Shown piece by piece: positions 7,334 through 49,550 of a DNA stretch of 50,091 nt (position 1 is its first letter; each line of letters begins with the position of its first letter). Below the pieces are notes generated by a model, which had not been told where the DNA came from, did no database searches, and was given only the letters and a program-made list of their open reading frames with translations. Made by a program: the position numbers and the translations under genes. The stretch spans positions 1-50,091 of the forward strand of contig JAZRFU010000071.1 in assembly GCA_045643865.1 (NCBI GenBank). Direction: 5' to 3'. This stretch comes from Eubacteriales bacterium (GTDB taxonomy: Bacteria > Bacillota > Clostridia > Oscillospirales > CAG-272).

Positions 7334-7362
7334 TTGACAATGCAAAATATATAAGTTATAAT
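7334..7362 (+). promoter_or_regulatory. Sigma-A consensus promoter for the acyl-CoA synthetase gene
   Basis: TTGACA (7334-7339), a 17-nt spacer, then TATAAT (7357-7362), about 60 nt upstream of the ATG. Confidence 0.55.
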
Positions 7363-12388: not shown

Positions 12389-12462
12389 GGCACCCCCAGC
12401 GAGAATCGAACTCACAACTAACCCTTAGGAGGGGCTTATTATATCCATTTAACTATGGGGGC
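12388..12462 (-). tRNA. tRNA-Arg (anticodon CCT), CCA encoded
   Basis: Minus strand: GCCCCCA UA GUUA..UAAU A AGCCC CU-CCU-AA GGGUU AGUUG GUGAG UUCGAUU CUCGC UGGGGGU G CCA. A cloverleaf could be folded by hand, with a GTTCGATTC T-loop. Confidence 0.85.
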
Positions 12463-26121: not shown

Positions 26122-26150
26122 ATTATATCACAAGCGTTTTTGTTTGTCAA
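26122..26150 (-). promoter_or_regulatory. Sigma-A consensus promoter of rplM-rpsI
   Basis: Minus strand: TTGACA (26145-26150), 17-nt spacer, TATAAT (26122-26127). Phased A-tracts lie upstream (26201-26228). Confidence 0.6.
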
Positions 26151-32441: not shown

Positions 32442-33803
32442 TCATTTACCCATGATCTGCATCGCCTTGTTGAGCAGCTTTGCCATGTATCCGCGCGTCA
32501 TAATCTCATTTGCTCCCACTGTCTTATCAGGAAGCTCCAATACACCGAGGGTATAAAGAGATTCTATTGCCTCGCTCGACCATGAGGGTATGGAATCCGC
32601 ATCAGCAAATACGGGGGCGACCTCTGCCTTGGCATATCCTATCATGTTGCTGACTATGACCGCCGCCTCGGATAACTTGATAGTTTCGTCGGGACGGAAA
32701 TAGATGTTGCCGTCAGCTTTAATGCCGCTTATGTACCCCTTTGAATATGCAAGCGCAATATATCCCTTCATTTCCTCGCTTATATCCGCATCGTCATAAA
32801 AACCCGTGCTTGTAGCTGTGGGAACATTTTTGATACCCAGCGCATTCATTGCCGTAACAACAAATTCTGAACGGCTCACTTCTCTGTCCGCCTCGAAATA
32901 GAAATAATCTCCGACACGTATTCCGTTCATCAGTCCCTTTTCCGTCATAGCAATAGCGTGACTGTAAGCGGGATCGTCCTGCATATCACTATATACCGTT
33001 GACGTACTTTGAGCTGAAACCGTGATACTTACCGTAGCAGACGCGCTATAATTGCCGTATTTGTCAAATACTACGTAATCAAAGCTGTCCGTACCCGTAT
33101 AAGATGTGGCAGGAATGTAGGTATATACACCCAATTTATTATCCTCAAGCACCACGCGACCATGCGAGGGATATTTGACGATCTCAAAGGTTATGGAATC
33201 CCCCTCGGGATCGTATGCCGAAAGCACTCCGTCTATTTTAACGTCACGGTACGTTTGATTGTTCAGTGATATATAAGATGCCATGCTCAACGTAGGGGAA
33301 TAATTCAATTCGTCTATCATAAAAATGTTGCATACAACATCATACGCGCTTCCGTTAACTCGGAATTCAAACGACGTGTTACCACCCGTTCCAACGCCCG
33401 TTTCCTCATAGGTCAGTAACGAAAGCTCGCCCGAGCTTATTTTTTGATTTACCGATACACTCTGGCTTCCGATATACAACGATCCGCACGTCGCATCGGG
33501 AAGCTTTGTTATAATTATATGATCCACCTGCGACAGATTCATAGCGCAAGCAAATCTGTCCGATGAAAAATTAAGAGCATTTCCCTTTATCCCTGCAACA
33601 GTCATCTGATTTTGATAAGCTATAACGTCAAGAGCATACGATACAACCGCCGTCTCATTGATCGCTACGTTTGAATTTCCCGACATCAAGGAATGAAGCG
33701 CAGATCCCTCACTCTGCTCCTCTGCACATACACAAACCGTCATAAACAGACATACGGCAATAACTATTGCTGACGTCAACAGTATTCTTTTTATCACCCT
33801 CAT
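32442..33803 (-). CDS. Secreted cell-surface protein: Ig/cadherin-like domain plus C-terminal SLH repeats
   Basis: Signal peptide MRVIKRILLTSAIVIAVCLFMTVCVCA. DPEGDSITFEIVKYPSHGRVVLEDNKLGVYTYIPATSYTGTDSFDYVVFDKYGNYSASATVSITV is a cadherin-like/VCBS-type repeat. SLH-like segments include SHAIAMTEKGLMNG...EVSRSEFVVTAMNALG. Confidence 0.65.
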   Translation of the reverse strand: MRVIKRILLTSAIVIAVCLFMTVCVCAEEQSEGSALHSLMSGNSNVAINETAVVSYALDVIAYQNQMTVAGIKGNALNFSSDRFACAMNLSQVDHIIITKLPDATCGSLYIGSQSVSVNQKISSGELSLLTYEETGVGTGGNTSFEFRVNGSAYDVVCNIFMIDELNYSPTLSMASYISLNNQTYRDVKIDGVLSAYDPEGDSITFEIVKYPSHGRVVLEDNKLGVYTYIPATSYTGTDSFDYVVFDKYGNYSASATVSITVSAQSTSTVYSDMQDDPAYSHAIAMTEKGLMNGIRVGDYFYFEADREVSRSEFVVTAMNALGIKNVPTATSTGFYDDADISEEMKGYIALAYSKGYISGIKADGNIYFRPDETIKLSEAAVIVSNMIGYAKAEVAPVFADADSIPSWSSEAIESLYTLGVLELPDKTVGANEIMTRGYMAKLLNKAMQIMGK

Positions 33804-36610: not shown

Positions 36611-37900
36611 ATGGAGCAAATCATCATCAACGGCGGTCGTCAACTTTACGGAAACGTATCTATTAACGGCATGAAGAATGCCGCACTCCCTGTTATCTGT
36701 GCATGTGTTCTTAACGAGGAGGCGTGTGTTATCGACAACATCCCCCCCGTAAGCGATATAGAAATTCTTCTCGACATTCTCGCTACTATGGGTGCCGAGG
36801 TTAACCGACTCACAAAAAATTCGGTAGAGATCAACTGCAAGAATCTCGTTCCCTGCTCATCTCCCAGAGAGCTGGCTGAAAAGCTTCGCGGTTCATCTTA
36901 TCTTCTCGGTGCAGAGTTCGGTCGTTTCGGCAAAGCAAGTGTTCCTCATCCGGGTGGATGCAGCATCGGTGCAAGACCTCTTGATCTTCACATGAAGGCG
37001 TTCGAGGCACTCGGTGCAGATTGCTGTCACAAGAGTGGACGTGTTGAGGTATCTTCTGAAAACGGTCCTATTGGAAGCTCTGTGTATTTCGATAAGGTAT
37101 CTGTTGGCGCAACTGTAAATGCCATCCTTGCATCTGTTCTTGCTGACGGTGTAACCACCATCGACAATGCAGCTCGCGAGCCCCATATCGTTGACCTCGC
37201 AGTATTCCTCAATGCTTGCGGCGCCAACATTATTGGTGCGGGAACATCTGTAATTAAGGTTAAGGGCGTAGCAAAGCTCCACGGTTGCCGTTATTCTATT
37301 ATTCCCGATATGATCGAGGCAGGAACCTACATGGCAGCAGTTGCAGCTACCGGAGGTAAGGTTACCGTAAGAAACGTTATCCCGAAGCACCTTGAGGCAA
37401 TTTCCTCTAAGCTCGAGGAGGCAGGCGCAAGTGTTACCGTTGGTGACAGCTACATAACCGTTGAAAGCACAGGTAAGCTCAAGGGTATCAGCATCGTAAC
37501 TCAGCCCTACCCCGGATTTGCAACCGATATGCAGCCACAGTTCGGCGCAATGCTCTGCTTTGCAGAGGGTACGTCCGACATATCCGAGAACATATTCAAC
37601 AGCAGATTCCAGTATATGGATGAGCTTTCTAAGATGGGCGCAGATATAAAGGTTGACGGTAATCATGCAGTCATTCGCGGCGGCGCTACTCTTTCCGGCG
37701 CTCCCCTCGTGTGCCATGACCTCCGTGCAGGAGCAGCTATGGTAATCGCGGCTCTTGCAACCAAGGATAGCTCAATTATTGAAGGTATCGACAAGATCGA
37801 GCGTGGATATTATAATATAGTAGGAAAGCTTCGCGAGCTTGGCGCTGACATTCAAAAAAAAGCAGGTGCTATGGACGAGCAAATTTCCGCTATAATGTAA
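36611..37900 (+). CDS. murA: UDP-N-acetylglucosamine 1-carboxyvinyltransferase
   Basis: INGGRQLYGNVSINGMKNAALPVICACVL, active-site loop HPGGCSIGARPLDLH (Cys retained), 429 aa. RBS GGAGG. Confidence 0.9.
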   Translation: MEQIIINGGRQLYGNVSINGMKNAALPVICACVLNEEACVIDNIPPVSDIEILLDILATMGAEVNRLTKNSVEINCKNLVPCSSPRELAEKLRGSSYLLGAEFGRFGKASVPHPGGCSIGARPLDLHMKAFEALGADCCHKSGRVEVSSENGPIGSSVYFDKVSVGATVNAILASVLADGVTTIDNAAREPHIVDLAVFLNACGANIIGAGTSVIKVKGVAKLHGCRYSIIPDMIEAGTYMAAVAATGGKVTVRNVIPKHLEAISSKLEEAGASVTVGDSYITVESTGKLKGISIVTQPYPGFATDMQPQFGAMLCFAEGTSDISENIFNSRFQYMDELSKMGADIKVDGNHAVIRGGATLSGAPLVCHDLRAGAAMVIAALATKDSSIIEGIDKIERGYYNIVGKLRELGADIQKKAGAMDEQISAIM

Positions 37901-37972: not shown

Positions 37973-39451
37973 TTACAGTATAATGCAGATAAGACCGCCG
38001 CTACCCTCATTGATGATGCGCTCCAGAGTTTCGGAAAGCTTGGTGCGAGATGCTTCAGGCATATGCTCCAGCTTTGAGTGAAGTCCCTCGTTGACAAGCT
38101 CATACAAGCTCTTTCCGAACATATTTGACGCCCATATCTTCTGCGGATCCTCTTCAAATTCCTTAAGCATATATTTGACAAGGTCCTCGGATTGCTGTTC
38201 CGTTCCGACAATTGGGTTGATCTCGGTTTCGATATTAGCGCGTATCATATGTATAGACTGTGCCGACGCACGCAATCTCACGCCGTATCCACCCGCTTGC
38301 TTTACTATCTCGGGATCAGCCAGACGGAGTTCTCTGACATCGGGCATAACGATACCGTATCCCCTCTCCTCCGCCTCATCGAGTGCCGACTCTACTCGGT
38401 CGTATCTTTCTTTCATTTTGGCAAGCGATTGCAACAACGATATAAGCTCCTCCTCGCCGTTTATATCAAATCCCGTCAGCTCACTTATCACGCTATAATA
38501 AAGTCCGTCTCTCATCGACACAGAAATGCGAGCGCAGCCCGTTCCGAGATCTATTTCATTTATAACACAGCTTTTCACATACTCATTCTGCGCGAGGTCG
38601 GAAAATGCGTCCTGTATATCCCCTGCCTTGCTTATTTTATCGGCGCATTTTTTTATATCCGAAAGTACAGACGTCTTTATTTTATGGCTGTTATCCAGCG
38701 CGACCGTCCATTCGGGCATAGATATGCGAACCTCACTGACGGGAAATTCGTGTAATACAAGCTCCAGAATGTGCTTTATGTCCTCTGCATCAAGATCTAT
38801 ACATGACACAAGCGCCACAGGCACCTCATACTTTGCTTCAAGCTCATACGCCAACGAAATAGCATCGTCACTCTGGGGGCGTGCGGAGTTCAATATAACT
38901 GCAAACGGCTTCCCCAACGCCTTAAGCTCGCTGACTATTCTCTCCTCTGCCTCAACGTAGCTTTGTCTTGATATGTCTCCTATGCTTCCGTCGGTGGTTA
39001 CCAACATGCCTATGGTCGAATGTTCACTGATAACCTTATGAGTACCCATTTCCGCCGCCTCAACAAACGGCATCGGATCCTCTCTCCAAGGAGTTCTTAC
39101 CATTCGGGGATGTCCGTCCTCAATAGTTCCAAGTGCCTCAGGTACGATGTATCCAACACAGTCAACCATCTTTACTCGGAACGTTGAGCAATTATCTATA
39201 TTTATCTGTACCGCCTCATCGGGAATAAACTTCGGTTCAGTCGTCATAACAGTTTTTCCCGCCGCCGATTGAGGCATTTCGTCTCTCGCTCTTTCACGGG
39301 AATATCCCTCTGTTATATTGGGAAGCACCAACGCTTCCATAAATCTTTTAATAAACGTAGATTTGCCGGTTCGAACAGGACCAACTACACCGATATATAT
39401 ATCTCCACCCGTTCTCTGCGCTATGTCGCTGTAAATAGAATGCTCTGCCAT
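37973..39451 (-). CDS. spoIVA: Stage IV sporulation protein A (spore coat morphogenetic ATPase)
   Basis: IYSDIAQRTGGDIYIGVVGPVRTGKSTFIKRFME and the C-terminal LICIIL-type end. The 492-aa length matches SpoIVA. Confidence 0.9.
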   Translation of the reverse strand: MAEHSIYSDIAQRTGGDIYIGVVGPVRTGKSTFIKRFMEALVLPNITEGYSRERARDEMPQSAAGKTVMTTEPKFIPDEAVQINIDNCSTFRVKMVDCVGYIVPEALGTIEDGHPRMVRTPWREDPMPFVEAAEMGTHKVISEHSTIGMLVTTDGSIGDISRQSYVEAEERIVSELKALGKPFAVILNSARPQSDDAISLAYELEAKYEVPVALVSCIDLDAEDIKHILELVLHEFPVSEVRISMPEWTVALDNSHKIKTSVLSDIKKCADKISKAGDIQDAFSDLAQNEYVKSCVINEIDLGTGCARISVSMRDGLYYSVISELTGFDINGEEELISLLQSLAKMKERYDRVESALDEAEERGYGIVMPDVRELRLADPEIVKQAGGYGVRLRASAQSIHMIRANIETEINPIVGTEQQSEDLVKYMLKEFEEDPQKIWASNMFGKSLYELVNEGLHSKLEHMPEASRTKLSETLERIINEGSGGLICIIL

Positions 39452-39492
39452 AAAAATCCTCCCACATTTTTTAACGATAATGCTTTCGCTAA

Positions 39493-39521
39493 ATTATATG
39501 GGAGGATTTATTGTTTTATGA
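39493..39521 (-). promoter_or_regulatory. Candidate sigma-E-type promoter of spoIVA
   Basis: Minus strand: TCATAAA (39515-39521), 14 nt, CATATAAT (39493-39500). This resembles the mother-cell sigma-E pattern (ATA-rich -35, CATAcAnT -10). It was judged by eye only. Confidence 0.4.
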
Positions 39522-39544
39522 ATATTGTAAAATTTATTTTGCGC

Positions 39545-41797
39545 TTATATTTTGGACATTTCTCTTTGCGCCATAACAAGTCCGTAATATATACCCTGCT
39601 TTTGCAAAAGCTCGTCGTGAGTTCCAACCTCTGCAACTCTGCCCTCGTCAAGCACGATAAGCTTGGTCGCATTACGCAAGGTAGATAAACGGTGCGCTAT
39701 TGCAATCGTCGTGCGGTTTGCACTCAAATTTTTAAGCGCGTCCTGTATCTGCTTTTCGGTTTCGGTGTCAAGAGACGCCGTCGCCTCGTCAAGTATAAGT
39801 ATTTTGGGATCTCGGAGTAAGGCACGCGCTATTGCAATTCTCTGTCTTTCTCCGCCCGAGAGAGTATATCCCTTTTCTCCTACGCGAGTGTCGTAGCCGT
39901 CAGTCAGCTTTATAATAAAGTCGTGACAACCAGACAGCTTTGCAACCGCGATTATCTCCTCGCGACTTGCCGATGGCTTAGCGTAGGCAATATTCTGATA
40001 TATCGTTCCTGCAAAAAGAAACGTTTCCTGCAATACCACACCCATCTGTGTTCGAAGCGCCTCTTGAGATATATCCCTTATATCCGTTCCGTCAATGCAA
40101 ATACTTCCGTCCTCAACGTCATACATGCGCATAATGAGATTTATAAGCGTAGATTTACCCACGCCCGATTTTCCGACAAGTCCTACGAACTCGCCTGCCT
40201 TAATATGTATATCGATATTGGTGAGCACCTCTGTGCCGCTGTCATATCCAAATGAAATGTGATTAATATCTATATCTCCCTTGAATATGGGCGTCTGTGC
40301 GGTGTCGCTATCCCTTATCTCCTCGTCCTCATCTATTATTTCAAACACCTTCGCGGTAGATGTCATAAAGTTGATGATCTGTCTTGGCAGATTGGACAAC
40401 ATACGCAACGGACCGTATATCATGGTCACATACATGGAAAACTGCGACATTTCTCCCAGCGTCATATTGCCGCCGAGTATTTCATTTCCTACGTAAAACA
40501 GTATGATAAACTCACCAAAGCACATCAAGAACTGCATTACAGGCATTACCGAATACCATAGAGTATCGGACTTCATCTGGAGATCGCGCTCCTCTGATGC
40601 CGCCTCGTCGTATCTTTCGCTCTCCTTATGCTCCATTCCAAACGATTTTACCACGCGGATACCCGAAAAAATATCGTGAAGCACCGAATTGGATTTAGAG
40701 CCGCTTTGCCAGCACCTATGGAAAAGCTTATGTATCTTCTTCATAAAGAACATAAAGCCAAATACAACAAGCGGTACGGGTAGGAGAATGAGCAGGAACA
40801 GTACGCTCAAGTCGTTTATCACAAACACTATTCCAAGCGCGACAAACAGCAAAATTTGCTCTATAAGCGCAGGAAGATAATGAACGAGGAATTCCTGTAT
40901 CCTGTCAACGTCGTGCGACACGCGACGCATAAGCTCTCCTGCGGTGCGCTTTGATATTCTTGATATAGACAGCTTCTGTATCTTTCCAAAAAGCATATCT
41001 CGCAGATCCACAATAAGACCGTTACTCGCCTTGATCAGTATATGTGATCGGAACATAGTCAACAGCTTAAGGAGTATCTGCACAGCCAGCATCGACAGTA
41101 TGATCAGCACATAGTCTTTTACAACAAGAGTTTGTTGTGTCCGGCTATTTATATATTCGTCCGTTACGATACGGTTTATTTGCGGAAGCATAAGATTAAG
41201 ACCGCTGACACCGATAAACATAAGGACAGATACCGCGATAAACCACTTGTACGGCTTAACCATGTTCCACAGGCGCTTTATAAGATTGAGCTTATTAGCG
41301 CATCTTGGGCAGCTTTTAGCGCCCTTAGTAAGAGGTCTTCCGCATTTGGAGCATCTGATTGCGGTATCAAACGAAGCAGCTTCACCTTCATTTTTCACGT
41401 AGTTCTCTACTCCAACTGTTTCGGCTATACGGTTAAAGCGCTTGGATGCAGAGATCGCATTTTTGCTTGCTGACATATCCATACGGCAAAGCAAGCAATT
41501 GGAGCCGTCACTTTTCAGCTTGTACGACAAAAAGCACGTACCAACGCCCATATCAACGTTTATTCTGTCAACAAGCTTTACGTCAGCACTATGTACCTTT
41601 TCTCCATCAAGCCATACTGAAATTTCTTCATTATCCGCAGTTACTATGCCGTTACATCTTACATCGGGATTGGAGGGATGCAAATTATATGAAATTACAA
41701 ATATAAACTCGTCGCGACTTTTATTCGGATATAACTTTTTTAGCTGTGATGTCAGCTTATCCTCGACATTTCTTTTCTTTTTCTTGAAAAATCTCAT
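39545..41797 (-). CDS. ABC exporter half-transporter (TMD+NBD) with an extra N-terminal soluble domain and zinc ribbon
   Basis: Walker A GKSGVGKST, signature LSGGERQR, Walker B ILILDEAT, H-loop IAHRLST. The ~175-aa N-terminal extension ends in CSKCGRPLTKGAKSCPRC just before TM1. RBS AGGAGGG. Confidence 0.85.
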   Translation of the reverse strand: MRFFKKKKRNVEDKLTSQLKKLYPNKSRDEFIFVISYNLHPSNPDVRCNGIVTADNEEISVWLDGEKVHSADVKLVDRINVDMGVGTCFLSYKLKSDGSNCLLCRMDMSASKNAISASKRFNRIAETVGVENYVKNEGEAASFDTAIRCSKCGRPLTKGAKSCPRCANKLNLIKRLWNMVKPYKWFIAVSVLMFIGVSGLNLMLPQINRIVTDEYINSRTQQTLVVKDYVLIILSMLAVQILLKLLTMFRSHILIKASNGLIVDLRDMLFGKIQKLSISRISKRTAGELMRRVSHDVDRIQEFLVHYLPALIEQILLFVALGIVFVINDLSVLFLLILLPVPLVVFGFMFFMKKIHKLFHRCWQSGSKSNSVLHDIFSGIRVVKSFGMEHKESERYDEAASEERDLQMKSDTLWYSVMPVMQFLMCFGEFIILFYVGNEILGGNMTLGEMSQFSMYVTMIYGPLRMLSNLPRQIINFMTSTAKVFEIIDEDEEIRDSDTAQTPIFKGDIDINHISFGYDSGTEVLTNIDIHIKAGEFVGLVGKSGVGKSTLINLIMRMYDVEDGSICIDGTDIRDISQEALRTQMGVVLQETFLFAGTIYQNIAYAKPSASREEIIAVAKLSGCHDFIIKLTDGYDTRVGEKGYTLSGGERQRIAIARALLRDPKILILDEATASLDTETEKQIQDALKNLSANRTTIAIAHRLSTLRNATKLIVLDEGRVAEVGTHDELLQKQGIYYGLVMAQREMSKI

Positions 41798-41848
41798 TCG
41801 GATTTCCCTCCTTTCTCCATATTCAATGTCACAAATAAAGCTTACAAA

Positions 41849-42382
41849 TCAGAGATATATCTCAATTTTCCGATAGCTCTTGGCAGTAAGCTCGGATACA
41901 CTTTCTATCTTATAGCGATTTCCGTCAACATCTACAAGTACTATACTGTCATCGCCCGTGTGCAAAAGATTTTTGAACGTATCCTGCATTGTGAAGCTCG
42001 CGCTTTTTCCATTGGTAAAAATGACCTTCCAATATGAAAAGCCGTAGCGCTCCTTTACACTCTTGATATCCTTGATTGTAGGAGCATAGTATTTTCTGTC
42101 TATCTCGGTTTTAATGACCGACTTTACGCCGTCATCAAAATCCTCAATACTGTATATAAGACCAATCTCCTTGCCGTCATCTCCGACTACCGATATATAT
42201 TCGTATAAAAACTCGTGCGGAAAAGCTCTGTGCAAGAATATACGGTCATACTGCTTCTCTTCGCCATCATCGCAAAGAGTCATAAAAACAAACCCGTTTT
42301 TAGTACCAAAGCTTGCATTGTCCTTGTCAAGTCGCAATATGCGGGCGGACTTTTCAAGCATTATTTCATTTTTCTCTTTCAT
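41849..42382 (-). CDS. DUF1854-like protein encoded between the two ABC genes
   Basis: 177 aa, soluble. FLHRAFPHEFLYEYISVVGDDGKEIGLIYSIEDFDDGVKSVIKTEIDRKYYAPTIKDIKSVKERYGFSYWKV matches my recollection of the DUF1854 pattern. RBS GGGAGGA. Confidence 0.55.
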   Translation of the reverse strand: MKEKNEIMLEKSARILRLDKDNASFGTKNGFVFMTLCDDGEEKQYDRIFLHRAFPHEFLYEYISVVGDDGKEIGLIYSIEDFDDGVKSVIKTEIDRKYYAPTIKDIKSVKERYGFSYWKVIFTNGKSASFTMQDTFKNLLHTGDDSIVLVDVDGNRYKIESVSELTAKSYRKIEIYL

Positions 42383-42400
42383 AACGTCCTCCCTTTTACT

Positions 42401-44695
42401 TTACTCTGTTATTCCTGCGTTTTTCAACGCCTCTGCCTGCAAGGTATATAGCTTGTTGTAAACTCCGTCCTCAATGGACAAAAGCTCGAAGTGCGTTCCG
42501 CGCTCGGCAACCTTACCCTTTTCAATAACGACAAGCTCGTCCGCATCTCTCAAGGTTGACAGACGGTGCGCTATCATAATGGTAGTTTTGTCCTTGGTCA
42601 ATGCCGTAATGGCATTTTGTATCTTTTGCTCTGTTTCGGTATCCATAGCCGCAGTCGCCTCGTCAAGAATAAGTATCTTGGGATTGCGAAGTATGGCTCT
42701 GGCAATAGACAGACGCTGCTTTTCACCGCCCGAAAGGTCTTTGTATCCAAATCCTATTTTAGTGTCGTAGGCATCGGGTAATTTGATAATGAAATCATGC
42801 GCTCCCGAAAGCTTAGCCGCACTGATGACCTCATCGTACGTAGCATCGGGCTTTGCGTATCTGATATTGTCAAGTATAGAACCTATAAAGAAATACGTTT
42901 CCTGCGATACTATTGCAATGTTCTCGTAAAGCGTCTTGAAGGACAGCTCCTTGACATTTATGCCGTCTATAAGTATTTCGCCCTCGTCACAGTCGTAGAG
43001 TCGCATAAGCAGATTAACTATCGTGCTCTTGCCCGCTCCAGTATGACCGACTATTCCAAGCGTATTTCCCGCGGGTACGTCAAAGCTGACGTTATTGATT
43101 ATCTTGCGGTTACGGACGTATGAAAAGTCCACATTTTTGAATTCGACCCGACCGTCCACTTTATCGGGAGTAACGGCATTTTCACTCTCGGTTATATCGG
43201 GAGTGGTATCGTATATTTCAAACAGTCGCTGCAATGCATTGGTGCTTGCCGCAGACCAGTCTATCATATCTGCGAAGAAATACATAGGCGTATATATCAT
43301 ATTGACGTACGCCACAAATTTTATAAGCTGACCGTAAGAAAAGTCATTGTAGCCAACAATAACCATCCAGCCACCAAGACCGAGCGCGATTATATTTCCG
43401 AGATACAAAATAAGTCCAAGCGATGGGTACACGTATCGGTTAAAAAGCGCCTGCCTTTTTTGACTGTCTGCCGCATTTTTATTGGTTCTGCCAAATCGGT
43501 CTATTTCGTTTTTCTCATTGGAGAACGCCTTTACCACTCTCATTCCCTGCAACACGTCTGAAACCTGAGAATTCAGCTTGCGCGCGCCCGAATATGTTTT
43601 GGCGTGCAGCTTCATGCTCTTGCGATAGCTCTTTAGTATGAGCAAAAAGAACAGCGGCACTGTTATCAATGAGCAAAGGGCGAGAAGCGGGTTTTCGATA
43701 AACAATATCACACATATAACCACTACCTGTACAACGTTTACCAAAAAGTAAGGAACACCGTCGCAAAAAAAGTAATATATGGTATTGGAGTCGTTGTTGA
43801 CCTGCGTCATCAGTGCTCCCGTCTGTCTGCCGTTAAAAAATGACAGTGACAGCTTTTCTATGGAATTAAAAACCGTCATTTTAAGGTCATATACTATCCT
43901 TGCCGCAATCCGCGCGGAAACAACTCCGTTGATCAAGCTGAACAAATGCGATAGCAATCTTGTCGCGATGATTATTCCCACAACGAGCAGTATTTCGCCG
44001 AAAAAGCTTCCGTCCTCGCGCAGTACCTCATCATAGAAAAACTGATTGGAGAAATACGGCACAAGAATTCCCGTCGCCGTAAGCAACACAAGAGAAGCGA
44101 GTATGATTGCCAGATGCTTTTTATATTTGAGCAAAAACATACCAAATCGGCGGTACAGCTTGCCCTTCTCCATACACCTTGGGCATACTCTTCTGTTTTT
44201 ATCAGGATACCTCATCGAGCACTTGGGGCATCGGTGCGACGCAGGATCGTCCTCGGCATCAACCTCGAAATCCACACCCTCAAGCTCGCCCTTTTTCATT
44301 CTCTCGAAATACTTAATGAATAGTAATGCCGACGCTCTGCAGGTGTTCGTCATAGCGCAGATAAAAACATTATCTCCACTCTCGGTAACTGCCGTCAATC
44401 GTGCACCCGACAAAAGATCCTCGACCTTCATCTCTTTTATCGTGTCAATGTCATACGACACAAACGATTCCTCGTGCCACTGTACCTCAATGCGCGACTT
44501 TTTATTCGGCTTTTCTATCGCGGTATGTCCCGAGATGACATATATGCTCTTTTCGGTTGCCACAACGTAAGTATCGCAAAGCACGTGATCTGAATTCATA
44601 TCGCAATATGAAGCCAGCATAATATCGCTCTCATTTACGCCGTTATCCGAGAGCGACCGATATATATATTCAGGTATCTTATCGGTTATAAGCAT
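42401..44695 (-). CDS. ABC exporter half-transporter (TMD+NBD) with an extra N-terminal soluble domain and zinc ribbon
   Basis: Walker A GHTGAGKST, signature LSGGEKQR, Walker B ILILDEAT, H-loop IAHRLST. The N-terminal ~185 aa ends in CPKCSMRYPDKNRRVCPRC. The start is set at M10 (ATG 44695) behind AAGGAGGTG. Confidence 0.85.
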   Translation of the reverse strand: MLITDKIPEYIYRSLSDNGVNESDIMLASYCDMNSDHVLCDTYVVATEKSIYVISGHTAIEKPNKKSRIEVQWHEESFVSYDIDTIKEMKVEDLLSGARLTAVTESGDNVFICAMTNTCRASALLFIKYFERMKKGELEGVDFEVDAEDDPASHRCPKCSMRYPDKNRRVCPRCMEKGKLYRRFGMFLLKYKKHLAIILASLVLLTATGILVPYFSNQFFYDEVLREDGSFFGEILLVVGIIIATRLLSHLFSLINGVVSARIAARIVYDLKMTVFNSIEKLSLSFFNGRQTGALMTQVNNDSNTIYYFFCDGVPYFLVNVVQVVVICVILFIENPLLALCSLITVPLFFLLILKSYRKSMKLHAKTYSGARKLNSQVSDVLQGMRVVKAFSNEKNEIDRFGRTNKNAADSQKRQALFNRYVYPSLGLILYLGNIIALGLGGWMVIVGYNDFSYGQLIKFVAYVNMIYTPMYFFADMIDWSAASTNALQRLFEIYDTTPDITESENAVTPDKVDGRVEFKNVDFSYVRNRKIINNVSFDVPAGNTLGIVGHTGAGKSTIVNLLMRLYDCDEGEILIDGINVKELSFKTLYENIAIVSQETYFFIGSILDNIRYAKPDATYDEVISAAKLSGAHDFIIKLPDAYDTKIGFGYKDLSGGEKQRLSIARAILRNPKILILDEATAAMDTETEQKIQNAITALTKDKTTIMIAHRLSTLRDADELVVIEKGKVAERGTHFELLSIEDGVYNKLYTLQAEALKNAGITE

Positions 44696-44736
44696 ATATT
44701 TCACCTCCTTTGAAGCTTGCATAAAACCACAAATTA

Positions 44737-44765
44737 ATTATACCGCTTTTATTGTCTCTTGTCAA
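44737..44765 (-). promoter_or_regulatory. Sigma-A consensus promoter of the ABC-DUF1854-ABC operon
   Basis: Minus strand: TTGACA (44760-44765), 17 nt, TATAAT (44737-44742). Confidence 0.55.
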
Positions 44766-46318: not shown

Positions 46319-46347
46319 TTGACAACGTATATTTTTTGTGGTATAAT
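46319..46347 (+). promoter_or_regulatory. Sigma-A consensus promoter (extended -10) of the TerB/ATPase/helicase operon
   Basis: TTGACA (46319-46324), a 17-nt spacer ending in TGg, then TATAAT (46342-46347). Confidence 0.6.
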
Positions 46348-46397: not shown

Positions 46398-48116
46398 ATG
46401 AGTATATATGAAAAGGGCGATGGCTTTTGGAATCTTGACGATTATGTAAGACCGTCTAAAAGCCAATCTTCAAAGAGCACATATAAAGCAAGCTTGAAAA
46501 GCGACAGTACAGTAGTAGAGATAGTCGCGCCGCAAGACCAAAAGCGCAGTTCTTCACAATTTAATGACTCCAAATTAACTCACAGTCAAGACAGTGTTAT
46601 AACTAAATTCATTCCCCCGAAAAGTGATGCTGTTTTCGCTCCCAAGCATGTGCTATTCGAATATTCTCCGCAAAATCCTTTTATAAAAAGCGTGAGAGTG
46701 CTTGCCGACAAGCCCGATAGCCGCATATTCGTAACGGATAATCTTTTTATGCGCGAGCGTCGCGCATTACTTGACAGAACGGTGAAGGAATCGCCGTTTA
46801 TTCCCTTTTATTCTTACGCTCCAAGATATTCACAGCTAACCAAGCCCCAGCTCAAATGGTATCTTTGGTGGCGAGAAAACGTACGCGCGGGAAACTTTAT
46901 GAAAACCGACCAGTCGTATATAATGCTTTATGCATACGAGCTGGCGGCAAGTGAGGACGGCGAGGATAAGCAAAAGGCGCTCGAATCATTGTGCGCTCTG
47001 CTCACTCACTATTCCGACCGCGAAATACCGCTCGTTTTCAAAATGATAATACGCGATATGATATGCGATTTCTGCCTCATTAACCGCCTGACTCCACCTA
47101 TGGATTCGTTAGGCGAGGCGGGGCGTCAGATACTTTACGGATCATTTCTTCCCGAGCTTTTCGTCGATCTTTCACACGATAACAACGGCGCGATAATCTC
47201 CTCGCTCTCTGTGTACGATTATCGCAGAAGTAAGTTTTTCAACGAACAGACCAAAACGGTATTTATGCGTGCAATACACGGAGCTTTGAGGACTGTTATG
47301 GACAATGCGGAAGCATTTGAGGCAATAACCTCATTTACCAAGGGAGTTTACGGATCTATAACGGCGGAGCGCCACCCGTTCGTGCGAATGACCAATATCG
47401 TAAATCGCAACGTAACTGTAGAAATAAGCTACTTTGAAATGTCGAATATGAGATCGGCAATAACGGACATTGTAAGATATTCCGAAAACAAGGTACGAGA
47501 GCATCTGGGAATAAAGAACAAGATCAACGTAATGTCTGTCAATCCGATTGCCAAAGGCGTAATAGACCGCTTTTTCGCCGAAAACCTTCCCGCGCAAGCG
47601 ATGGCGGATCGCCGCAGACGTGAAAATCGAATTACAGAAGCACTTGAAAACGAATATGACAAGCTATACGACGTTCCAAAAGCTGAAATATCTACCGAAA
47701 ACGCCATGCTCATAGAGCGCGAATCCTGGAACACCACCAAAATACTCGTCGAAGCGTTTTCCGACGGTATGGAAGGTGAGAGCGACAGCTATGCTATGCC
47801 GCAGGAACAAATAGCAGCACCCGACACAATAAATCCGATAGATATTCCATCACCCATGCAAGTGTATGCGGACACATCGGATACGTTCTTGCAGATCAAA
47901 TCAAAGCTTGGCGATATTTCCGAATTTATATCTCTGTGCCTAAACAAAGACGCGCGAGCGCAACGTACGTTTGCTCATACTCACGGTTATAGCACAGACG
48001 AGCTTGCAGACCGCATCAACGAGGCGGCACTGGAGGTCATTGGAGACATAATTCTTGAGGAAGAAGGACAAGCTTACTCTGTAATAGAAGATTATATTTC
48101 CCTTTTTAACACCTGA
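46398..48116 (+). CDS. TerB-N / TerB-C domain protein (SngA-like)
   Basis: PRYSQLTKPQLKWYLWWRENVRAGNFMKTDQSYIMLYAYELA is a TerB-N-type core. The C-terminal STDELADRINEAALEVIGDIILEEEGQAYSVIEDY is TerB-C-type. The N-terminal ~100 aa is S/K/Q-rich. RBS GGGGGAGG. Confidence 0.65.
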   Translation: MSIYEKGDGFWNLDDYVRPSKSQSSKSTYKASLKSDSTVVEIVAPQDQKRSSSQFNDSKLTHSQDSVITKFIPPKSDAVFAPKHVLFEYSPQNPFIKSVRVLADKPDSRIFVTDNLFMRERRALLDRTVKESPFIPFYSYAPRYSQLTKPQLKWYLWWRENVRAGNFMKTDQSYIMLYAYELAASEDGEDKQKALESLCALLTHYSDREIPLVFKMIIRDMICDFCLINRLTPPMDSLGEAGRQILYGSFLPELFVDLSHDNNGAIISSLSVYDYRRSKFFNEQTKTVFMRAIHGALRTVMDNAEAFEAITSFTKGVYGSITAERHPFVRMTNIVNRNVTVEISYFEMSNMRSAITDIVRYSENKVREHLGIKNKINVMSVNPIAKGVIDRFFAENLPAQAMADRRRRENRITEALENEYDKLYDVPKAEISTENAMLIERESWNTTKILVEAFSDGMEGESDSYAMPQEQIAAPDTINPIDIPSPMQVYADTSDTFLQIKSKLGDISEFISLCLNKDARAQRTFAHTHGYSTDELADRINEAALEVIGDIILEEEGQAYSVIEDYISLFNT

Positions 48117-48149: not shown

Positions 48150-49550
48150 ATGAACAGTTCCCTTAATACGACATCTTATCCTACAGTGCCCCGCAGAATA
48201 CTCTCCTCTCTGCTCTCCAGCGTATCTGCGGGCGTAGTTCCGAGAGTCGGAGCGCCTTATATCGCTATCGGAAGAAATGATGAAATAGGCGCATTTTTGT
48301 CCGACCTTGAGGAGATAAATGAGGGCGGCGGCGCTATGCGTTTCCTTATTGGACGATACGGAAGCGGAAAGAGCTTTCTTATGCAGCTTATCCGTGGGTA
48401 CGCCCTCGAACGCGATTTTCTGACTGCGGACTGCGATCTTTCCCCCGAAAGACGTCTTTGCGGTAGCGGTCACGGCGGAATATCGACCTATCGCGAGCTT
48501 ATGAAAAATCTCGCTTCAAAATCCTCACCCGACGGAGCTGCGCTCTCAAAGGTTATCTCGCGTTGGATCGGAAAGCTTCGCTCGGAGCTTGTCGGAAGCG
48601 ACATATCTCCCGACAGTCCCTCATTTGAACGCGAGCTTGCCAAAAAAATCAACGCCGAGCTTGCCGAGCTTGAATTTTTCGTTGGCGGATTTGATTTTTC
48701 CAGAGTCATATTTGAATATTACAAGGCGAGCATTTCGGACAGCGAGGACGCCAATGCAAAAATGAGCGCCTGCCTTTGCTGGATGCGCGGTGAATACTCA
48801 AACAAAACCGAAGCAAAGCGCGCTCTCGGATTTTCAGTATCAGTAATCATAGATGACGACAACTGGTACGATTTTCTTAAGCTCTGGGCGGTATTGTCCA
48901 AACGAATGGGCTATCGCGGTCTTGTCGTATTCATTGACGAATGTGTCAACCTTTACAAAATCCCCCATAGAATAAGCCGCGAGAACAACTACGAAAAGAT
49001 TCTCTCCATGTTCAACGACACCCTGCAAGGTCGCGCCCCCGGACTTGATATAATCTTTGGCGGTACACCCCAATTTCTCGAAGATACAAGACGCGGACTT
49101 TTCAGCTACGAGGCATTGCGCTCGCGTCTTTGCGATAGCAGATTTGCGCTTGACGGCTTCAAAAATCTCATAGGTCCCGTTATCCGCTTGCGCCGACTTA
49201 CAGACGACGAGCTTTTTGCGCTCATTCAAAGAGTAACAGTTCTCTATTCTCAATATTATAATTGGGAATGTACTGTTACCAATGAGGACCGCTTGAAATT
49301 CCTCAATATATGTCTTTCGCGCGCGGGCGCGGACAGTATGATAACTCCCCGTGAGATGCTGCGCGATTATATGACTGTCCTCAATATCCTTATGCAGAAT
49401 CCTACCGCTAAATTTGACGACGTGGTTGGAAGCTGCGTTACGTTGAAAACAGACAAGGTCAGCGAAGACGTATCAGATGAAACAACCGTGCCGACAACTA
49501 AAAATGACACTCAAGCCAAGCGCTATTCCGCGCAGGATATAGAGTTTTGA
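48150..49550 (+). CDS. DUF2791-family P-loop ATPase (BrxD-like / SngB-like)
   Basis: RRILSSLLSSVSAGVVPRVGAPYIAIGRNDEI..GGGAMRFLIGRYGSGKSFLMQLIRGYALERDFLTADCDLSPERRL. Walker A GSGKS, Walker B LVVFIDE. RBS AAAGGAG. Confidence 0.65.
   Translation: MNSSLNTTSYPTVPRRILSSLLSSVSAGVVPRVGAPYIAIGRNDEIGAFLSDLEEINEGGGAMRFLIGRYGSGKSFLMQLIRGYALERDFLTADCDLSPERRLCGSGHGGISTYRELMKNLASKSSPDGAALSKVISRWIGKLRSELVGSDISPDSPSFERELAKKINAELAELEFFVGGFDFSRVIFEYYKASISDSEDANAKMSACLCWMRGEYSNKTEAKRALGFSVSVIIDDDNWYDFLKLWAVLSKRMGYRGLVVFIDECVNLYKIPHRISRENNYEKILSMFNDTLQGRAPGLDIIFGGTPQFLEDTRRGLFSYEALRSRLCDSRFALDGFKNLIGPVIRLRRLTDDELFALIQRVTVLYSQYYNWECTVTNEDRLKFLNICLSRAGADSMITPREMLRDYMTVLNILMQNPTAKFDDVVGSCVTLKTDKVSEDVSDETTVPTTKNDTQAKRYSAQDIEF

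Follow-up and report, generated by a model that had tools for sequence, protein, structure and literature searches.

A conserved ABC-DUF1854-ABC cassette of gut Clostridia probably encodes a self-contained exporter with paralogous cytosolic heads

What kind of machine is built when two different ATP-binding cassette (ABC) half-transporters, each with a soluble domain ahead of its membrane part, are encoded on either side of a small protein of the family DUF1854? This question is raised by three minus-strand genes in the 50,091-nucleotide (nt) stretch analysed here (hereafter the window; contig JAZRFU010000071.1 of a Eubacteriales bacterium, assembly GCA_045643865.1), which we call ABC1, DUF1854 and ABC2 in their order of transcription. 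An earlier note, made from the sequence alone, had proposed that the two N-terminal heads and the DUF1854 protein form a cytosolic complex that gates or loads a heterodimeric exporter. Our analysis shows that the cassette is real, well delimited and strongly conserved in gut Clostridia, and leads us to conclude that the products of the three genes probably make up a single, self-contained clostridial machine for ABC export, with DUF1854 as a subunit and heads that engage the cargo. The features on which the argument turns, all on the minus strand, are as follows, with the kind of evidence in brackets; NBD is the nucleotide-binding domain, TMD the transmembrane domain, TM1 the first transmembrane helix, RBS a ribosome-binding site, ORF an open reading frame, aa amino acids and AF2 AlphaFold2.

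42401..44695, minus: ABC1 half-transporter, 764 aa, comprising head, zinc ribbon, TMD and NBD (ORF, Pfam, RBS, orthologue starts)
44291..44695, minus: ABC1 cytosolic head, residues 1-135, predicted seven beta strands and a capping helix, PH-like (AF2, Foldseek)
44174..44230, minus: ABC1 predicted zinc ribbon, CPKCSMRYPDKNRRVCPRC, residues 156-174 (sequence, orthologues)
44048..44173, minus: basic elbow helix and TM1, straight after the ABC1 ribbon (AF2 helices 172-190 and 192-216)
43283..44110, minus: ABC1 TMD, full-length ABC_membrane (Pfam)
42650..43096, minus: ABC1 NBD, canonical ATP site (Pfam, motifs)
41849..42382, minus: DUF1854 protein, 177 aa, predicted two beta-rich lobes, each with a terminal helix (Pfam PF08909, AF2)
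39545..41797, minus: ABC2 half-transporter, 750 aa (ORF, Pfam, orthologues)
41423..41797, minus: ABC2 cytosolic head, paralogue of the ABC1 head (hhalign, BLASTP)
41300..41353, minus: ABC2 predicted zinc ribbon, CSKCGRPLTKGAKSCPRC, residues 149-166 (sequence, orthologues)
40406..41236, minus: ABC2 TMD (Pfam)
39776..40225, minus: ABC2 NBD, canonical ATP site (Pfam, motifs)
44737..44765, minus: operon promoter, perfect sigma-A type TTGACA-17-TATAAT (consensus score 12/12)

The comparison set consisted of 80 genome loci and seven further loci (L081-L087) found through the head alone; it provided 73 complete ABC1 and 79 ABC2 orthologues, 72 pairs for the NBD motifs and 71 loci for the promoter. 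The order ABC1-DUF1854-ABC2 is invariant across the 80 loci and the seven head-selected loci wherever the flanking sequence suffices. An exhaustive search with the head profile gave 417 representative clusters (50% identity). DUF1854 is adjacent in five of the head-selected contexts and fused in two, and an ABC2-type gene comes next wherever the contig continues; the co-occurrence of head and DUF1854, a point raised by the earlier note, is strict, since all seven contexts have DUF1854 adjacent or fused. Many of the carriers are uncultured gut Oscillospiraceae and Acutalibacteraceae. Clustering of the neighbouring ORFs of the 80 loci revealed no further gene family that accompanies the trio beyond close relatives: radA, spoIVA, murA and a TerB_N/BrxCD-like pair recur only in 9-18 close relatives.

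The fusions are particularly informative. Four representatives, 935-1013 aa in length, have the architecture head-TMD-NBD-DUF1854, the ABC1-type half thus ending in DUF1854. Their sources are an Oscillospiraceae metagenome-assembled genome (MAG), a MAG of the Limnochordales, Clostridium sp. Marseille-P299, which is in culture and encodes the fusion WP_066712443.1, and a metagenome contig. An ABC2-type gene lies directly downstream in the two whose context is readable. No other evidence speaks as strongly for DUF1854 as a physical partner as these natural ABC1-DUF1854 fusions, and, given that DUF1854 is joined in them to the C-terminal end of the ABC1 NBD, they place it on the NBD side.

The family of the middle protein had been named from resemblance only, and a profile search bears the assignment out: the 177-aa protein scores 92.5 bits against the Pfam DUF1854 model (PF08909; cut-off 26.8, E = 2.5e-26) and covers profile positions 1-128 of 130. 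The protein is under very strong constraint: its homologues, about 980 clusters (at 90% identity) with roughly 65% identity, have the invariant motifs KERYGFSYW, TMQDT, VDxDxNR and SYRKxExYL. The AF2 model (predicted local distance difference test score, pLDDT, 86.5; predicted template-modelling score 0.56) has two lobes, residues 15-98 and 102-176, each with 6-7 strands and a closing helix, from which we infer that DUF1854 may have a tandem PH-like arrangement.

Both ABC proteins contain a full-length ABC_membrane domain followed by ABC_tran in Pfam and belong to the type IV (ABCB-like) exporter half-transporters; ABC1 and ABC2 make up a heterodimer of paralogous type IV (ABCB/MsbA-like) halves. 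The canonical NBD motifs that had been reported at both sites of the 764- and 750-aa proteins are present, and they are general in the family. The Q-loop, the signature and the H-loop histidine are kept in both chains of the 72 orthologue pairs, and Walker A and the Walker B glutamate depart from the canonical form in no more than one or two sequences (canonical Walker B in 72/72 ABC2 and 71/72 ABC1). Judged by these motifs, the two ATP sites are both catalytically competent, and the degenerate ATP site of heterodimeric exporters was found in none of the chains as a family trait across these pairs. Identity in the TMDs across families is 64% for ABC1 and 55% for ABC2, a level that speaks for a single, specific substrate.

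The N-terminal extensions are genuine coding sequence. The possibility that they result from misplaced starts is countered by conservation from residue 1 in the 80 related genomes: head-only queries retrieved the orthologous ORFs from residue 1-5 in essentially all 80 loci, with E-values of 1e-23 to 1e-82 for ABC1 and 1e-5 to 1e-41 for ABC2. Mean head identity to the orthologues is 43% for ABC1 and 29% for ABC2; conservation of the ABC2 head was taken from the loci because a word-index homologue search with it returned no matches. The earlier note had described two N-domains of shared architecture but little shared sequence. The architecture is indeed shared, but homology is detectable in the sequences as well (BLASTP E = 9e-10; hhalign probability 99.3%, E = 2.4e-20 across 164 columns).

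It had also guessed that the heads are PH-like, and here the outcome is divided. A Pfam scan of residues 1-135 of ABC1 and ABC2 gave nothing at E up to 1, including the bacterial PH families (bPH_x, GRAM-like). At the level of the fold, an AF2 model of ABC1 residues 1-224 (pLDDT 84.4) has a short helix, seven strands (27-115), a capping helix (117-134), a linker, the ribbon, the elbow helix (172-190) and TM1 (192-216), and the top 50 Foldseek matches of the head in the PDB are all PH domains, including those of Rtt106, GRK2, TBC1D23 and BRAG2, with target template-modelling (TM) scores up to 0.64 and root-mean-square deviations of 5-13 A. The predicted ABC1 head is thus weakly PH-like, at the fold level only, and the ABC2 head would be so by its homology to that of ABC1. 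Sequence searches of the PDB with the heads and with DUF1854, both as single sequences and as profiles, gave nothing significant, the only likeness being that of generic zinc ribbons (Nop10, RNF4), and a solved structure of the head or of DUF1854 was not found there. These paralogous head/zinc-ribbon domains, PH-like by prediction, are previously undescribed.

The CxxC-x10-11-CxxC ribbons that had been placed directly ahead of TM1 are confirmed in both proteins, the order of elbow and TM1 in ABC1 being taken from the AF2 model. Both have two conserved CxxC knuckles 10-11 residues apart, and the conserved cysteines make them predicted Cys4 zinc sites; the Pfam model Zn_Ribbon_1 scored 20.6 bits on ABC2, under its cut-off of 25. 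The ABC1 ribbon has the signature CPxCG-x-RYPD-xx-R-xx-CPxC, is kept in 73/73 complete orthologues and in 27/28 full-length distant relatives from the exhaustive search, and, at 72% identity, is as conserved as the ABC1 NBD (77%). The median net charge is +8 for the ribbon and elbow segment, which fits a position at the inner membrane surface, and -7.5 for the ABC1 head, which is acidic.

The arrangement of the genes is that of an operon. The three minus-strand ORFs lie as the earlier note had them, with intergenic gaps of 18 and 51 nt and strong RBSs ahead of DUF1854 and ABC2 (AAAAGGGAGG and GGAGAAAGGAGGG, respectively). Read from its first ATG, the ABC1 ORF reaches 44722 and encodes 773 aa; we place the start at the second ATG, at 44695 (764 aa), because this is preceded by the RBS AAAGGAGGTG and because the orthologues begin there (MLxTDKIP). 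The sigma-A promoter recognized earlier at 44737-44765 matches the consensus at 12/12 positions and is, by its sequence, a genuine vegetative type. It is one of five perfect TTGACA-17-TATAAT sites in the window, against 0.04 expected, all of which start with TTGACAA:

1252-1280, minus: perfect promoter
7334-7362, plus: perfect promoter
26122-26150, minus: perfect promoter
44737-44765, minus: perfect promoter, that of the operon
46319-46347, plus: perfect promoter

This excess suggests a genuine promoter type that is common in the genome and nothing special to the operon. The 200 nt upstream of ABC1 contain a perfect site in 21/71 related loci and an 11/12 site in seven more, and the source genome and its relatives seem to use perfect consensus promoters habitually. 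An Rfam scan of the operon 5' region revealed no riboswitch or leader.

The statement that DUF1854 has no published function turned out to be wrong. A genome-wide fitness study by random barcode transposon-site sequencing (RB-TnSeq) found that, in Acidovorax and Cupriavidus, DUF1854 shows cofitness with two cyanophycin-synthetase-like genes and an ABC transporter; its authors proposed that an exporter of an amino-acid polymer has DUF1854 as a subunit, and they noted fusions (Price et al., bioRxiv 10.1101/072470). The NCBIfam models NF052233 (CphA_assoc_ABC) and NF052234 (CphA_assoc_prot) are, moreover, the best curated matches for all three window proteins. DUF1854 is mentioned in only one paper of the searchable literature, and the system is of a catalogued but essentially unstudied kind. 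A paper on a Cupriavidus zinc-resistance ABC transporter was followed as a lead and set aside, for it describes an unrelated glycerol importer; a cyanophycin dipeptidase paper held nothing relevant to the cassette, and a tblastn search of the PLSDB plasmids with DUF1854, made in search of a proteobacterial example, gave no match.

Taking these data together, we propose the following working model. In each half, a cytosolic head, a predicted Cys4 zinc ribbon and a basic elbow helix come first, and the elbow leads straight into TM1. DUF1854 would be an obligate third subunit, cytosolic and located on the C-terminal (NBD) side of ABC1, as the natural fusions suggest; to judge from the phenotype of the related proteobacterial system, the one line of evidence on this point, it would be needed for transport and not be a block on it. 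The heads, which ribbon and elbow would keep at the membrane surface, may recruit or sense a specific endogenous cargo, which could be a peptide or an amino-acid polymer synthesized in the cytoplasm, or else a lipid-linked molecule, and the TMDs, with their unusual degree of conservation, would then translocate it. The operon would function independently of spoIVA, its downstream neighbour.

Several results weigh against this model. The ABC2 ribbon is present in 72/79 orthologues and absent in seven (L026, L027, L034, L046, L053, L078 and L080), so that it is dispensable there, and it was apparently lost in at least three separate groups of loci. That the ABC2 ribbon is lost in some loci and the ABC1 ribbon always kept in the orthologues suggests that the two heads are not functionally equivalent. 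Among residues that might change together with this loss, none was found in DUF1854 and scattered lineage noise alone in ABC1. P0249, a marine ABC1-type relative (L087, a TARA ocean metagenome scaffold), has the head but lacks the CxxC...CxxC ribbon, and DUF1854 is still directly downstream of it. The PH matches of the ABC1 head score weakly, the best of them with E = 1.3e-3 and thus none reaching 1e-3, at a query TM of about 0.3, and Foldseek with the DUF1854 model gave no significant match (E = 0.04-0.3, TM about 0.2), the double-PH structures of Rtt106 and SSRP1 being among these non-significant matches. Alignment of the head profile with the DUF1854 profile by hhalign showed no relation; DUF1854 as a detached copy of the head, a notion that we entertained, is therefore unsupported at the sequence level. 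The best curated relatives are also distant: NF052233 scores 483.6 bits on ABC1 and 522.0 bits on ABC2 against an equivalog cut-off of 880, and NF052234 scores 58.6 bits on DUF1854 against a cut-off of 150. Set against NF052233 in isolation, the PH parts of the heads gave no match and the ABC2 ribbon and elbow gave 10.3 bits (E = 0.15). Finally, no cyanophycin-synthetase-like gene is found near the cassette in the 80 loci, nor in the Pfam lists of L081-L087. Scores this far under the equivalog cut-offs suggest that the clostridial cassette is a sister clade of the proteobacterial family and not a member of it, and, together with the lack of a head match, they make the transfer of function from that clade weak.

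A more ambitious version of the model is tentative at best, and we hold it to be doubtful: the two heads and the two-lobed DUF1854 protein would together serve a fully active heterodimer as a cytosolic platform dedicated to loading, and the cassette would represent a distinct class of accessory-subunit-dependent exporters, common among gut Clostridia, that move an endogenous polymer or a lipid-linked cargo. The gating or loading complex of head, head and DUF1854 that the earlier note had put forward is possible; against it count the fusions, which put DUF1854 after the NBD and away from the heads, and the loss of the ABC2 ribbon in three lineages with no correlated change in DUF1854.

The alternative that survives best, unlikely as we judge it, is that the cassette is the Gram-positive orthologue of the cyanophycin-associated exporter, the heads and DUF1854 binding the exported cargo, a cyanophycin-like amino-acid polymer made by a CphA-type synthetase that is encoded elsewhere in the genome. 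That the CphA-associated models are the best NCBIfam matches of the three proteins, and NF052233 also that of ten distant relatives (453-548 bits), speaks for this idea, as does the cofitness of DUF1854, the ABC transporter, cphA and cphA' in Acidovorax and Cupriavidus (bioRxiv 10.1101/072470). However, all these scores, including those of the ten relatives, are well under the equivalog cut-offs, a conserved synthetase neighbour occurs in none of the 87 loci, the heads alone are unmatched by NF052233, and a single ABC gene is described for the proteobacterial system, against two paralogues here.

The cassette might otherwise encode an MsbA-like flippase of lipids or lipid-linked precursors, its ribbon/elbow segments and heads lying on the inner leaflet and DUF1854 acting as a lipid-handling partner. 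MsbA and MsbA-related models come next after the CphA model, with 377-442 bits, the ribbon and elbow bring a charge of +8 to the membrane face, and conservation of the TMDs is high. Lipids are frequent ligands of PH-like folds, and Foldseek returned weak matches of DUF1854 to LolA and lipid-binding proteins. We nevertheless regard this explanation as quite improbable, since the MsbA scores are under their own cut-offs, the LolA matches have a probability of 0.41-0.44 with TM about 0.2, and the ABC1 head is acidic.

Little probability also attaches to a regulated efflux pump for drugs or antimicrobial peptides, in which the heads and DUF1854 would be purely a regulatory switch of the ATPase that responds to a cytosolic signal, comparable to regulatory domains of some ABC importers or to the FHA domains of Rv1747. 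The core is of the generic ABCB type, accessory cytosolic domains of ABC transporters are often regulatory, and regulator genes do occur nearby (a MarR-like gene upstream in seven loci and a TetR gene near the cassette in L081). It is rare, however, for multidrug pumps to remain 55-64% identical in the TMD and fixed in a three-gene order from one family to another, and both ATP sites are canonical here, unlike those of most heterodimeric drug exporters. Furthermore, DUF1854 mutants of the sister clade share the phenotype of the transporter, which indicates that DUF1854 is a positive factor there. A function linked to sporulation, suggested by spoIVA lying 93 nt downstream of ABC2 on the same strand and by the same neighbourhood in 17-18 related loci, is very improbable, because the adjacency is missing in the other roughly 60 loci, with spoIVA inverted or displaced in some, the operon promoter is of the vegetative consensus and a promoter-like site, TTCATA-18-TATAAT, appears to belong to spoIVA itself.

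The operon does lie directly upstream of spoIVA and does have a vegetative promoter, as first noted, but the link to spoIVA is no more than local synteny (17-18 of the 80 loci); as a functional clue, the spoIVA/radA linkage was rejected, since the adjacency is limited to close relatives. The relevant features are:

37973-39451, minus: spoIVA, separated from ABC2 by 93 nt (39452-39544)
39522..39493, minus: TTCATA-18-TATAAT site ahead of spoIVA (promoter scan)

No terminator-like site was called between ABC2 and spoIVA. The TTCATA-18-TATAAT site, which we take to resemble a sigma-E type promoter (ATA ... CATAtAaT), suggests that spoIVA is transcribed on its own. Convergent with spoIVA is a gene for a MurA-like enolpyruvyl transferase of the EPSP_synthase family (36611-37900, plus strand; E = 2e-86), which is syntenic in 8-12 relatives. 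On the other side of the operon, a 572-aa TerB_N-domain protein (46398-48116, plus strand) is encoded behind a perfect promoter of its own and is followed by a 466-aa ATPase of the BrxC/BrxD family (48150-49550, plus strand; E = 5e-148); this TerB_N/BrxCD-like pair is syntenic in 9-11 related loci and might serve as a module for defence or stress. Another gene (32442-33803, minus strand) encodes a surface protein that combines Big_9/cadherin-like with SLH domains, a sign that the cell envelope of the source organism anchors an S-layer. The sole Rfam match in the window is a tRNA (12391-12462, minus strand).

ABC exporters with a dedicated soluble subunit and cytosolic heads on the substrate side are rare, and such a system is informative on how cargo is selected and handed over to the TMDs. 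Naming the cargo would annotate a gene set of hundreds of gut Clostridia and would help to explain the cphA-linked exporter of beta-proteobacteria as well.

How does the cassette compare with known systems? In the layout of a single chain there is a likeness to the HlyB/PCAT-type exporters, which have a C39 peptidase or C39-like domain: there, too, a cytosolic N-terminal domain, which in HlyB/PCAT recruits the substrate, stands ahead of TM1 of an ABCB-type exporter. The window proteins differ in having no Peptidase_C39 match in Pfam, in a predicted fold that combines a PH-like domain with a zinc ribbon, and in the extra soluble subunit. Tandem PH proteins such as Rtt106 and the middle domain of Pob3/SSRP1 resemble the DUF1854 model, with its two consecutive lobes of 6-7 strands and a C-terminal helix, but the matches are non-significant, the sequences show no relationship and the biological roles have nothing in common. 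TM287/288, BmrCD, TmrAB, PatAB and EfrCD share with the cassette two adjacent genes for paralogous half-transporters and the type IV exporter fold. In most of the well-studied heterodimeric bacterial exporters, one of the ATP sites is degenerate, and both an N-terminal head and a third subunit are missing, whereas the cassette has heads, a third subunit and canonical ATP sites in both chains. The system of beta-proteobacteria described by NF052233 and NF052234 comes nearest as a whole; in it, a DUF1854 protein is paired with an ABCB-type exporter that measures about 766 aa and is extended at its N-terminus by about 180 residues. It is described with one ABC gene, and its link to cphA has no counterpart beside the window cassette, nor is homology of the heads demonstrable; in the window, two paralogous halves stand around DUF1854, and this heterodimeric arrangement is previously undescribed.

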